From: Escherichia coli
GTDB taxonomy: Bacteria > Pseudomonadota > Gammaproteobacteria > Enterobacterales > Enterobacteriaceae
Length of the DNA stretch: 64,000 bases
Reading direction: 5' to 3' (one strand)
NCBI RefSeq assembly: GCF_016903815.1
Contig: NZ_CP069973.1
The number at the start of each line of letters is the position of its first letter. Position 1 is the first letter of the stretch. Positions 42,801 to 51,800 of this stretch are shown here, piece after piece. A program made the position numbers.

Positions 42801-45800
42801 ACACCGGAAGTGGAAAGCGTCACGCGACGTTTAGACAGGCCAAAACCGAAATCATCAAGCATGATTTCCATCGCCGGAACGACATTGTTCAGGTTGAGCA
42901 GCGGCTCGCCCATGCCCATCATCACTACGTTAGTGATTGGACGCTGACCGGTGACTTTTGCTGCGCCGACGATTTTCGCTGCACGCCACACCTGGCCGAT
43001 AATTTCCGATACCCGCAGGTTGCGGTTAAAGCCCTGCTGGGCAGTGGAACAGAATTTACACTCCAGCGCACACCCCACCTGCGAAGAGACGCAGAGCGTG
43101 GCACGGTCGTCTTCCGGGATATACACCGTTTCGACGCGCTGATCGCCAACGGCAATTGCCCATTTAATGGTGCCGTCAGATGAACGCTGTTCTTCAACCA
43201 CTTCCGGTGCGCGGATCTCCGCCACCTCTTTCAGTTTGCCGCGCAACACTTTGTTGATGTCGGTCATCTCATCAAAGTTGTCGCAGCAATAGTGATACAT
43301 CCACTTCATCACCTGATCGGCGCGGAAGGGTTTTTCACCTAAATCTTTAAAAAACTCCCGCATCTGCTGACGGTTGAGATCCAGCAGGTTGATTTTTCCA
43401 TCTTTCGTGGTGACGTTTTCAGGTGTGACTAATTGTTCAGACATATGCTATTCCGGCCTCGTTATTACACGTTATGGCCCCTGGAGGGTTGAAAAAAGAA
43501 ACGCCCCGGTGAGCGGCTGCTCGTCCGGGGGCGCTGCATTGTACAAATTCTGGCGCACGGATGCCACGTTTGCACGTAGCATTTACGAAATTATTAACGG
43601 GTGCGCGGGCACACTTCGCCTTCGCCGAAGAAATAAGCGATTTCGCGAGCGGCAGATTCGACGGAATCAGAACCGTGGGTACCATTTTCGGTCAGGCTGT
43701 CAGCGTAATCAGCACGCAGAGTACCGGCCAGTGCGTTTGCCGGATTGGTCGCGCCCAGCAGATCGCGGTGACGCTGAACGGCGTTTTCACCCTCCAGCAC
43801 GGAAACCACGATCGGGCCAGAGGTCATGAATTCAACCAGACCATCAAAGAACGGTTTTCCATCGTGTTCAGCATAAAAGCCACGAGCCTGTTCAACGGTC
43901 AGGTGCAGCATTTTGGTGCCGACAATTTTGAACCCTGCAGCTTCAAAGCGCGCAAAGATATTACCAATGACGTTTTTTGCTACCGCGTTCGGTTTGATGA
44001 TGGAAAAAGTACGTTCAATAGCCATTTTTACCTCTGTAAATTGTTCTGTTGTTGTCTGTACCAGCGTACGAGATGGCGCGGATTATAATGAGCAACAGGG
44101 CCGTTGACTATTGATGAAGGTAACATTTTTTTAAAATAAACCTAGTTTAAGCAACAATCAGGGACAAAACAGACTATTGCATGACAAATTTCACTGTCGC
44201 GATTTGCCCCACGTCATCCATCACCAGCAATTGATAATCGCCTTTATCCGTCAAATGCAGGGTCACGTTGCGCCCGCGTTCAGTTAACGGTTCGCCGTTT
44301 AGAAACCACCAGCGTTCACCAGCCCCTCCACTTGATTGCAACGGCAAAGTCGCTTCCGCTGCGCCCGGTAAACGTTTAATAATCGCGCCATCGCGAACAC
44401 CTGTCAGCTGTAGTGGGAGTTGTGCATCGTGACCGTATGGCGGGCAAATTGTCGAGGCCGGTGGTAAGCGCACAGCGCGGTGTTCTGATGCGGGCAACCA
44501 GGGTTCCAGCGGTAGCGGCCAGACATTTATCATTTCTTGTCGCGCCTGAGGGCAATCAGCGGCAACACGTTTGCCGTTTTCATCCAGCCAGATGGGGAAA
44601 CGAATGCCATTAATGCCTTCCTGCTCCGGCAGTAATAGAGTTGGCGGCTGACTCCCGTCCAGCAGCCAGGTTGCCAGGCGGAGGCGGCAGTTACCGTCAC
44701 CTTCCGGCAAAGACTGTCCGCCCGGCCAGCAGATAACGCCACGACTTACAGAGTCAGGACGTGGGTCTTCCGGCAGATTCGCACTGCGCGACAGTAAGAT
44801 ATTATTAACCTGATTCAACAATGGTACGGCGCTGGCAAAGCCAAACTGACCAACAACGGGCGTGCCGTCCGGTCTGCCAGTCCAGATCCCAATAACATAG
44901 CGAGCGTTAACCCCAATCGCCCAGGCATCACGATAGCCATAGCTGGTGCCCGTTTTCCATGCCAGTGGGGCGACGCGCGGCAAGGCACCATCCGGCAAGG
45001 GTTGCGCTTCATCAGCCATAATCCGGCGAATGATCCACGCCGCCCCCGACGACATTAAAGGCCGTTCAAGCAGCGGATCGTCAGGCTGTAAGCGCAATTT
45101 GCCTGCCTTGCCGTGGCGAGCAAACGCGGTATAGGCCGCCGCCATATCCCCCAGTTTTGCACCAGCGCCGCCGAGAATGAGCGAAAGATTCGGTGCAGCA
45201 CCGTTGGGCAAATATAACGGCAATCCAACATTGCGTAACTTTGCCGCAAACCGTTTCGGCCCATAGGCTTCCAGCACCTGCACAGCAGGTAAATTCAGCG
45301 AGCGCACCAGCGCCTCGCTCATGCTGATCGGGCCATGAAAACCGCTGTCAAAGTTGCCAGGTCGGTAATCACCGGTACGCCGGGGAACGTCTTGCAGCAG
45401 TGATGCCGGGTGGATCAAGCCTTCATCCAGCGCCAGACCATAAACAAACGGTTTGAGCACCGATCCTGGCGATCGGATCGCATTGACCATATCAACATGA
45501 CCAAAGCGTGAATCATCGTTGAGATCAACCGAACCCACCCAGCCGCGAACACGCATATCGGTATGATCAACCACGATCATCGCCAGTGAGCTGCGCGGTG
45601 GTAATCGTCCTTTCCAGTTTTGCGCCAGTTCTTCCAGACGTCGTTGAAGACCGGCATCCAGCGTAGTAACGATTTTGTCGCTTTTGCTTTTACCGAGCAT
45701 CATGCGCGAAAACAGCGGTGCCAGTTGCGGCATTTGTCGGGGTGCCAGCCAGATGGGTTCTTCCCTTGACTCTTTTACCTGCTCACGGGACCACACACCT

Positions 45801-48800: not shown

Positions 48801-51800
48801 CTGGCTTTAATTTTCACGGTTAATGGCTGATTGGGGCGCATTTTGGTGGGGGTTTCCAGCGCCAGATCGAGACGACGGTTTTCATCGCCAAGCGGCAGAT
48901 GCAACACCCCAACTGCGCGTTTTGGCGTCGCAGAGCGAGATTTATCGCCAGGACGTACCACCAGCGTACTTAAATACAAATCATGACGATTCCAGGTTTT
49001 ATCGACCGGAATCGTCAGATCCAGCCCTTGAGCCGGAACATCAATCTCTTGCCACCACAGCGGCCCTTCACTGGACTCGACCATCGCATAACCTTTACCC
49101 GCCGTTGGCGCAGCAATATGCAACTTAATGGTATCGCCAGGGCGATAACTGGCTTTATCCAGTTTCAGCGTGACACGGTCGGGTCGCACGGCACCGCTCC
49201 CGTCGCTGTTGTCCTGCCAGCTATAGCCAGCCCAGAAACGCACACTACTGACCGCTTCATTCGGCGCTTTGACTTCCAGACGATAAGCGCCCCACTCTAC
49301 CGGGAAACTGACCTTGCCGGTTTCGTCCGCTTTCAGATCCAGAGTTTGTTCATTTTCAATCAGATCTTTTTGATCAAACTGTGACTGCCAGCCTTCATCT
49401 TCTGACCAGTTCCAGTAGTAATCGCGGCGTTCGCGAATCAGGCGCACCTGCAAGCCCGACACGGCTTTTTTTACGCCTTGCGCATCGCTATAAACGATGT
49501 CAAAAGCGGCGTTACTGCCTTCATCAACAATGGGCTGTTTCACCGTGCTGTCAGTGCGATAATCGTAAACCGATTTCGAGGCGAACTGCGGACGGATCCC
49601 CGGCAATGCATCGGCAGGCCAGATAACCTGCTCAGCGCGGCGCGTCACCGGGCGACCGCCCGATTCCAACAAACTACCCTGGAAAATAACCTGTAATGGG
49701 GAATGCGTTTCCTTCCACTGGCTTTCTGTAGAAACTTCGCCACGCCCTTTATCATCCAGCGTCAACTGAACTTCATCCAGCGTGCGGGAAAGATTTTCGG
49801 CAGCTATATCGCCGAATTCGAAACCAGGTAAGGCTGACACAGCTTCACGCAGTGGGCGCAGGAAAAGTTGCCCTTGCAAAGTATTACCATTAGCAGGCGC
49901 ACCATACAGGTAGTACCCCACCACGGAGAATCTCACTTCATCTTTCGGCGTTAGCGGGGTTTTCTCACCAGTCAGATTCAGCGCCATGCGCTCTGGCATA
50001 AAATCTTCGACGTGGAAATCCCACATCCGGTACTGGTTATCGCCCGTGTTAGCGCGAATATGCCACATACCGGTTGCCGCATTGCTATCGAGTGGCCAGG
50101 TAAAGTGGTAGAGGCCATTCTCCGGTTGACTAACGACGCTCCTGAGTACCTGCCCGTCGGGTTTAATCACGTCTAACTTGATGGGTTGATCGGGCAATGC
50201 TTTTCCATCTGCATCACGCAATAAACCATTGAGGATGACTGTTTCACCAGGGCGATAAAGATCGCGCGGGCCAAACATGAAAAACTGTTTGCTATAGCCT
50301 GGCGCGCCAGCAATGTTAAATTCTGCTAAGTCCAGCGCCGGAAGTTTTAAATCGAGTAGCGTTGTCTGACCGTCTTTACGCGCCAGCAGTAATGCCGCGT
50401 TTTTATCATTTTCCAGCTGCACATGCCCCTGAGCATCACTGGTTGCCTGAGTCAGAGTCTGCCCTTTCTCATTTAATAAAGAGACTTCTATTCCTTGCTG
50501 GGCCGCGCCGTTTTCCAGACTTTGGGTAAAGATATCCAGACGATTGTGATAACGGTGAGCTGAAACGCCGATATCACTTAACGTAAACAGCGTCGCGGGA
50601 TTACTGTAATCGTAACGTCCAGCCTGATTCATCACAGCCAGATACACGCCTGCCTGCTGAAGCGGTTTGATATCACCCAGCGGCAGCAATAATTTTTCAC
50701 GGGTGTTACGCGCAGGATTGAGATCAAACCGTCCGGTATAAACCAGATCCGCCATCTGCAGCAGTTTTTCAGACTGCCAGTTCGCCAGCGAATTGCGGTA
50801 TTCCCATTGGCTAATGAATGCAGGCAGAGATTCGGGCTTCACACGGAAGAAGTTAACATCAACATTGTTAACGTTGAGCGCCATTACCGGCAGCCCTTCA
50901 ATAACTTTACCAGGTAACAACGAACCACGGCTGGCAAAACCAACGCTGGGTTGGATATCGCGGGTAGTTATAGTTTTTTCGTAATCTTTACTGAAGGTTG
51001 CGTTGTTGAGTGCTTTGACCTCCTTGCCAATAGTGACGATCAAATCACGTTTCGGTTCGAGGTGGCGTAAACGCAACTCTTTAAGATTATCTGACAGCTC
51101 CCAGGCACCATCCACTTTGCCGCTTTTCTTATCGACGACATGGATAACGCGTGAGAAATCCTGATCCGGGTCGAGAGGAATGGAGAACGTCAGCACCAGC
51201 GTGGCTGCGCCATCAAGTTGAACTTCAGAGAGATCCAGCAATGTCAGCGCCTTACCGGCACTCTGTTGGGCCAGTTTTTGTCGCTCCGGCGCGGAAAGTT
51301 TTGCTGAACTCACGTTTTCTGAAGAGGCCGCTTTAGTAACTTCAGAAGGCGCATCTTTTTTCACCGCTGTTGGCGCGTTATCGTTGTTGTCGCACCCTGC
51401 CAGCGCCAGCATTAGCATGCAGGCGGCTACGCGTAACTTTTTCATTTTTCATCCCTGCCACAATGGCCCGTTAGCAACGTCGAATAATTATTATGCGTGA
51501 GAATTTACGTTATGTAATTCAGTATCACGCCCATACAATCCGAATTTTAGTGAGAATTGTGGCTCAGACAGCCAAATCAGCCTCTTTTGCTTGTCGCTTT
51601 TCACTAAACATCCGACAATTTAGCCTAACCCCGGCAAAAATGGAGATGCCTATGTCCACGACATGGTTTGTAGGAGCCGACTGGCTCGCCGAACATATTG
51701 ATGACCCGGAAATTCAGATTATCGATGCCCGCATGGCGTCGCCTGGACAGGAAGATCGTAACGTTGCTCAGGAGTATCTGAATGGACATATTCCCGGCGC

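Follow-up and report, generated by a model that had tools for sequence, protein, structure and literature searches.

The closest described system to the locus reported here is the yfhM-pbpC pair of Escherichia coli K-12. yfhM (b2520) encodes YfhM, also called ECAM, an alpha-2-macroglobulin (A2M) of which the structures 4RTD, 4ZIQ, and 5A42 are available, and pbpC (b2519) encodes the penicillin-binding protein (PBP) PbpC, or PBP1C. Protease trapping by ECAM has been demonstrated in vitro and structurally, and formation of the thioester and covalent capture of the protease have been demonstrated for the K-12 protein (PMC3328433, PMC4498604); the mechanism and the roles of individual residues are treated in these papers and in PMC3735191 and PMC5764988. 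A periplasmic defence-and-repair unit made up of the two proteins was proposed from the adjacency of their genes by Budd 2004 (quoted in PMC3328433, PMC5764988, PMC6131605, and PMC7554673). We analysed the copy of this pair carried by a stretch of 64,000 nucleotides of E. coli DNA (the window; contig NZ_CP069973.1, assembly GCF_016903815.1), and we put the probability that it is a canonical, intact, and functional E. coli yfhM-pbpC unit at about 95%. The pair is ordinary core genome, already known and well described.

Several other systems resemble one or other of the two proteins. Sa-A2M of Salmonella enterica (4U48, 4U4J, 4U59) is a type I thioester lipoprotein A2M with the same domain order, and its identity to ECAM is 82% (PMC4498604). 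YfhM of the window matched 4U48 over its full length (3050 bits, E=0). Sa-A2M differs in being an ortholog from another genus, and its crystals hold the native, locked state, in contrast to 4RTD, which represents protease-cleaved ECAM. Human alpha-2-macroglobulin, complement C3, and CD109 (7VON, 6TAV, 8CEM) share with ECAM the macroglobulin (MG) domains, the bait region, the CXEQ motif in the thioester domain (TED), and covalent capture after proteolysis, and YfhM gave weak but significant matches to all three (E about 1e-6). Unlike these proteins, ECAM is a membrane-anchored monomer of the periplasm with two additional MG domains at its N-terminus; its identity to human A2M is about 12% (PMC4498604). 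The type II bacterial A2Ms, represented by MagD of P. aeruginosa and the YfaS class of E. coli, likewise have a periplasmic macroglobulin fold with a bait region, but they lack the lipobox cysteine and the CXEQ motif and belong to an operon of six genes (PMC3735191, PMC5764988), whereas in the window both cysteines are present and the adjoining gene is pbpC. PbpC, for its part, shares with PBP1a and PBP1b (4OON, 3UDF, 5FGZ, 3VMA) the membrane anchor, the GT51 and transpeptidase domains, the first catalytic glutamate, and the SxxK, SxN, and KTG motifs. It differs from them in its C-terminal BiPBP_C domain and in having Gln140 in place of the motif-3 glutamate; moreover, no Lpo activator of PBP1C is known, and the protein is dispensable and cannot stand in for PBP1a or PBP1b (PMC7554673).

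Both genes of the window are uninterrupted open reading frames (ORFs), with no internal stop in either translation (Table 1). The ORFs, the YfhM length, and the coordinates given by an earlier sequence-only reading of this DNA (44174-51445) agree exactly with our ORF table, and the check that it had proposed, protein alignment with K-12 YfhM and PbpC, was run and revealed neither frameshift nor truncation. YfhM is identical to its K-12 counterpart in 1626 of 1653 aligned columns (98.4% at the amino acid level), the differences being 26 substitutions and the loss of Ser1373, all of them natural allelic variation; its signal peptide and lipobox, bait, thioester, and C-terminal MG domain (CTMG) motifs are the same as in K-12. 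PbpC is identical in 759 of 770 residues (98.6%), has the same length of 770 amino acids, and differs by 11 conservative or surface-type substitutions, none of which falls within the motifs tested; all of these, GKIRQ included, are identical in K-12. Ratios of non-synonymous to synonymous substitution rates (dN/dS) against K-12, estimated by the Nei-Gojobori method, are 0.070 for yfhM and 0.068 for pbpC, with dS of about 0.10, indicating strong purifying selection on both genes. The gene identities are equally clear, since the DNA is 100% identical to that of many E. coli chromosomes in which the genes are annotated as yfhM (alpha2-macroglobulin) and pbpC (peptidoglycan glycosyltransferase PbpC), and the proteins match ECAM structures and PBP1C equivalogs. 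No evidence was found against the identity or the integrity of the pair.

The distribution of the pair is that of a core locus. When positions 44000-51600 were used as a megablast query, 5,425 of 5,426 complete E. coli genomes proved to carry the block, always on the chromosome and, for the two genes, strictly in single copy; at least 80% of the query was covered at one place in 5,423 genomes, and one complete genome gave no match whatever to the yfhM-pbpC block. The gene order rodZ-rlmN-ndk-pbpC-yfhM / sseA-timP-sseB-pepB-isc is the same in K-12 MG1655, where the pair also lies between ndk and sseA. Two strains depart from this picture in opposite genes. The match to NCTC9100 (NZ_LR134239.1) is limited to query positions 2295-7272, comprising yfhM and the first ~19 nt of pbpC, and pbpC appears, on alignment, to have been deleted or replaced there. 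The dog isolate ECOCN22 (NZ_CP186528.1) carries an otherwise identical allele with an IS5-family element inside yfhM, annotated as two alpha-2-macroglobulin pieces and a transposase, which looks like a natural knockout of yfhM.

YfhM has the complete architecture of ECAM. Eleven Pfam domains were found in the expected order, all above the gathering score: bMG1, A2M_bMG2, bMG3, MG2, bMG5, bMG6, A2M_BRD, A2M, TED_complement, CUB_A2MG, and bMG10. The protein also matched the ECAM chains 4RTD, 4ZIQ, and 5A42, determined by crystallography and cryo-electron microscopy, over their full length (E=0). The lipobox and the CLEQ thioester-type motif that the sequence-only reading had recognised in the 1652-residue protein were both recovered, the former as LAGC at residues 15-18 and the latter, occurring once, at residues 1187-1190. 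The N-terminus reads MKKLRVAACMLMLALAGCDNN, with Asp19 at position +2 of the lipobox Cys18, and LAGCD is unchanged in all members of a sample of 10 diverse E. coli alleles in which the invariance of the motifs was checked. Aspartate at this position leads to retention in the inner membrane during Lol sorting. ECAM has been described as anchored in that membrane (PMC4498604). A bait stretch of 53 residues (916-968) is the same as in K-12 and invariant across the sample; within it, Arg923-Leu942 are absent from the electron density of elastase-cleaved ECAM (PMC4498604). Equally invariant are Cys1187 and Gln1190 and the upstream Tyr1183 and Tyr1185, residues for which thioester and protective roles, respectively, have been described, and the RDDR and ESMY motifs of the CTMG, which keep the thioester pocket locked and bind the bait once it is cleaved (PMC4498604). 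The defining features of type I bacterial A2Ms are therefore all present: the lipobox cysteine, the series of MG, bait, CUB, TED, and CTMG domains, CXEQ with its tyrosines, RDDR and EXMY, and an adjacent pbpC. From the 98.4% identity and the intact motifs we infer that this allele likely forms the thioester and captures proteases covalently, as K-12 ECAM does.

PbpC is likewise a complete PBP1C. Two NCBIfam equivalog models recognise it well above their cutoffs: NF008414 at 1558 bits over residues 1-770 (cutoff 1121), and TIGR02073 PBP_1c at 912 bits (cutoff 494). An N-terminal anchor is present, in keeping with the single transmembrane anchor of PBP1C (PMC3328433), as are the GT51, transpeptidase, and C-terminal BiPBP_C domains, the first GT51 glutamate, and SxxK, SxN, and KTG. 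The GT51 motifs include EDRWFWKHPG, which fits EDxxFxxHxG and contains Glu84, as well as GGSTLTMQ and KREILTLYLN. Among 141 family representatives, clustered at 50% identity, these GT51 motifs and the anchor hardly vary, the position of Glu84 is occupied by glutamate in 136, and the three transpeptidase motifs are kept in 134-140. PBP1C is reported by Schiffer and Höltje (1999) to have a moenomycin-sensitive transglycosylase activity and an unusual beta-lactam binding. In the third GT51 motif, Gln140 aligns opposite the glutamate of the PBP1a structures 4OON (RKINE) and 3UDF (RKITE). The same glutamine is found in K-12 and in 8 other E. coli alleles, is invariant in the ~45 best-scoring, and hence closest, family representatives, and outnumbers glutamate over the whole set (75 against 58 of 141). 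An inactivating mutation was considered and rejected on the ground of this occurrence in K-12 and throughout the clade. Judged by these alignments, Gln140 is a trait of the PBP1C clade and no defect of this copy, whose membership of PBP1C it leaves unaffected. Every testable defining feature of the two proteins is present except the motif-3 glutamate of GT51 at large, and the departure at that position is characteristic of the PBP1C clade.

The two genes abut without a spacer, the TAA stop of yfhM being followed directly by the ATG of pbpC, which agrees with the stop/start boundary at 46486/46487 described earlier. On the minus strand the junction reads ...AGACCG TAA ATG CCT... (AGACCGTAAATGCCT), and its form, CCGTAAATGCCT, does not vary across the 10 alleles compared, which include 8 further ones from E. 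coli. No recognisable Shine-Dalgarno sequence precedes the pbpC ATG. This and the conserved zero-nucleotide junction suggest coupling by termination and reinitiation, and yfhM and pbpC are likely co-transcribed and translationally coupled. Terminator-like matches on the minus strand fall inside genes at the chance rate and none lies at the junction, according to the same consensus scan that was used for promoters. Downstream of pbpC no terminator-like hairpin was found, which leaves room for read-through into ndk. The best sigma-70-like match of the region, TAGTCA-17-TATAAT (10/12), lies between pbpC and ndk at 44082-44110 on the minus strand, a location consistent with a candidate promoter of ndk itself. 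On the other side of the pair, the yfhM-sseA intergenic region of 206 nt is the same as in K-12. An sseA ORF of 334 amino acids (51493-52497, plus strand) begins only 48 nt away from where yfhM starts; in RefSeq, sseA has 281 amino acids, with a start equivalent to window position 51652, and the longer ORF is probably a mere upstream in-frame extension.

The mechanism proposed for this copy is taken from the literature on ECAM and applied here by homology. ECAM would be exported, lipidated at Cys18, and, given the aspartate at +2, kept in the inner membrane as a monomer facing the periplasm. An endopeptidase entering the periplasm would cut the exposed bait around residues 923-942, and the cleaved bait would then bind the C-terminal MG domain through the RDDR and ESMY contacts, displacing the TED. 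In ECAM this swing of the TED measures about 36 Å, exposing the thioester while the arms close on the protease (PMC4498604, PMC3328433, PMC5764988). The exposed Cys1187-Gln1190 thioester would react with a lysine of the protease, and closure of the TED and MG6 arms would complete its covalent tethering and its steric inhibition towards large substrates. PbpC is predicted to be translated off the same mRNA right after the yfhM stop as an inner-membrane-anchored class A PBP. Its demonstrated activity is the polymerisation of peptidoglycan glycan chains, and its proposed role would be extra synthesis or repair upon a breach of the envelope.

A number of points weigh against regarding the locus as a canonical, functional unit. 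The NCBIfam scan of YfhM returned no family, which we judge to be a gap in the library and not evidence, because the matches in Pfam and the PDB leave no doubt. In PbpC the second conserved glutamate of GT51 (RKxxE) is replaced, though K-12 PBP1C is the same. The promoter and terminator consensus scan found as many sites as expected from shuffling and nothing above chance, so the operon structure is deduced from the zero-nucleotide junction only. No role of PBP1C is known under laboratory conditions, it is unable to replace PBP1a or PBP1b (PMC7554673), and the first phenotype reported for it needed overproduction (PMC6131605). Finally, a functional partnership between YfhM and PBP1C is itself a hypothesis. 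The sequence-only reading had called the pair a known operon combining a protease trap with cell-wall repair; the first half of that description stands on experiment, since protease trapping by ECAM is established, but the second half was overstated, as three of the papers that cite the idea (PMC3328433, PMC5764988, PMC7554673) explicitly call the ECAM-PBP1C partnership hypothesis or speculation.

The last of these points leaves room for a tentative alternative, in which the two neighbouring genes are expressed together without PBP1C being a repair partner of the trap, their adjacency reflecting co-inheritance or co-regulation for another envelope role, such as peptidoglycan synthesis specific to a niche in the host. 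We regard this as possible though the less likely account. Neither an interaction of ECAM with PBP1C nor a joint phenotype was found in the literature searched, searches for newer functional work on the two proteins returned nothing that alters the picture, and in at least one complete genome, that of NCTC9100, the match to the block is confined to yfhM. Against it, the TAAATG junction is strictly kept without a spacer in every allele examined, the two genes occur together in 5423/5426 genomes, and co-occurrence of yfhM and pbpC across many bacteria has been reported in the literature. It is far less probable that the pair is decaying or already inactive, its ORFs still long but encoding, for example, an A2M with a dead thioester or a PBP without catalytic activity. 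The codon deletion and the cluster of TED/CUB substitutions in YfhM relative to K-12 could be taken in this sense, as could the glutamine in PbpC. The deletion allele is common, however (~556 genomes), K-12 has Gln140 too and the closest PBP1C clade shows no variation there, and dN/dS of ~0.07 in both genes together with intact, invariant catalytic and structural motifs largely refutes decay. Least credible of all is that the large protein is a thioester-less type II macroglobulin of the YfaS/MagD class and not ECAM. E. coli does carry both A2M classes (PMC3328433), but the lipobox cysteine and CLEQ are both missing from MagD-type proteins (PMC3735191) and present here, and the gene adjoins pbpC in place of a six-gene mag-like operon and encodes a protein 98% identical to K-12 YfhM. 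The sequence refutes this alternative, and YfhM is assigned by the same features to the type I (thioester) class of bacterial A2Ms, not to the MagD/YfaS class.

The difference in length between YfhM of the window (1652 amino acids) and of K-12 (1653) arises from the loss of one codon in frame, without a frameshift. An 81-nt probe across the deletion matched ungapped, at 95-100% identity, in ~556/5426 genomes, and also in L006; matches in the 90-95% identity band of the same probe were gapped and 84 nt long. Several unrelated strains have a block of 7272 nt instead of 7275 nt. A lesion was rejected as the explanation, the change being a clean codon deletion and a common allele present in ~10% of complete genomes. 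Further, the deletion falls in a hotspot of amino acid polymorphism. Residues 1359-1488 hold 12 of the 27 differences from K-12, including a cluster of substitutions in the TED and CUB segments, and 26 of the 75 variable amino acid columns among the 10 alleles lie in columns 1351-1500, which make up 9% of the length (binomial P=9e-10). Codons variable only at synonymous sites show no such enrichment (24/260; Fisher test against these columns, P=5e-7). The hotspot may reflect either relaxed constraint or diversifying selection, 10 alleles being too small a sample to separate the two. A bolder reading joins this observation to the GT51 glutamine: the TED/CUB hotspot, S1373 indel included, would reflect diversifying selection at a surface contacting proteases or PBP1C, and the glutamine an altered or conditionally activated polymerisation by PBP1C. 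We consider it improbable; if true, the hotspot would be the signature of an arms race in a bacterial 'innate immune' protein. Both features are properties of the whole E. coli or PBP1C family and not of this window. Gln140 across the PBP1C clade and the TED/CUB polymorphism beside an invariant bait offer small starting points for studies at the family level. The stretch itself has little discovery value: it is ordinary core genome of E. coli, and its copy of the protease trap and the neighbouring PBP1C looks functional. What matters to the field is whether and how ECAM and PBP1C cooperate and what they do in vivo, a question that this copy makes no more tractable.

Table 1. Positions of yfhM, pbpC, and their features in the window.
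Feature	Position	Strand	Details
yfhM (ECAM)	46487..51445	-	ORF table: ATG start, 1652 aa; type I bacterial alpha-2-macroglobulin lipoprotein
Signal peptide ending in lipobox LAGC (Cys18)	51392..51445	-	MKKLRVAACMLMLALAGC-D; same as K-12
Bait-region core, aa 923-942	48620..48679	-	Range from PMC4498604
CLEQ thioester motif (Cys1187...Gln1190)	47876..47887	-	Within YPYGCLEQ, aa 1183-1190; single CLEQ in the protein
Amino acid polymorphism hotspot, aa ~1351-1499	46949..47395	-	C-terminal part of TED and CUB segment (Pfam coordinates)
One-codon in-frame deletion site (K-12 S1373 absent)	47327..47332	-	Pairwise alignment; ...TPRNDERKW... vs K-12 ...TPRNSDERIW...
CTMG motifs RDDR (aa 1593-1596) and ESMY (aa 1631-1634)	46544..46669	-	Invariant in 10/10 alleles
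TAA-ATG junction, zero spacer	46484..46489	-	yfhM stop 46487-46489, pbpC start 46484-46486
pbpC	44174..46486	-	ORF table: ATG start, 770 aa; class A penicillin-binding protein 1C
N-terminal hydrophobic membrane anchor, aa 10-28	46403..46459	-	CWITLAAAPFLLFLAAWGA; mean Kyte-Doolittle 1.79
GT51 glycosyltransferase domain, aa 60-226	45809..46309	-	Pfam PF00912 (Transgly), 176 bits
GT51 motif 3 GKIRQ, aa 136-140 (Gln140)	46067-46081	-	RKxxE expected in GT51 generally
Transpeptidase (penicillin-binding) domain	44930..45499	-	Pfam PF00905; SVLK 342, SLN 396, KTG 511
BiPBP_C domain, aa 687-767, characteristic of PBP1C	44186..44428	-	Pfam PF06832, 63.9 bits
Weak sigma-70-like candidate upstream of yfhM	51490..51518	-	ATTACA-17-CATAAT; 9/12 consensus matches; number of sites equal to shuffle expectation

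Elsewhere in the window, xseA and der flank an accessory adhesin cluster. It comprises a very large gene of 8043 nt for an 'adhesion domain-containing protein' (~21872-29914, minus strand), adjoined by a SinI-family gene and by sinH, which encodes an intimin-like inverse autotransporter. sinH is cut by IS1203, an insertion sequence of the IS3 family of 1310 bp (31175-32484) that is missing from the otherwise identical strain 7/2. The element is bounded by imperfect inverted repeats of 26 nt (31174-31199 and 32460-32485) with a target duplication of 3 bp, and it shortens SinH from 725 to 691 amino acids, leaving a remnant at 32482-34557 on the minus strand. Colinearity of the whole window with strain 7/2 was rejected after 24402 mismatches were counted, and BLAST traced the cause to IS1203 in the window.

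An Rfam scan of positions 40000-56000 gave no match inside yfhM or pbpC. Its only matches lie further right, between sseA and sseB: the small RNA IS128 (153 bits) at 52644-52822 and ryfA (315 bits) at 52954-53258, both on the plus strand. In strain 7/2 the small toxin gene timP is annotated at the position equivalent to window 53100-53225.

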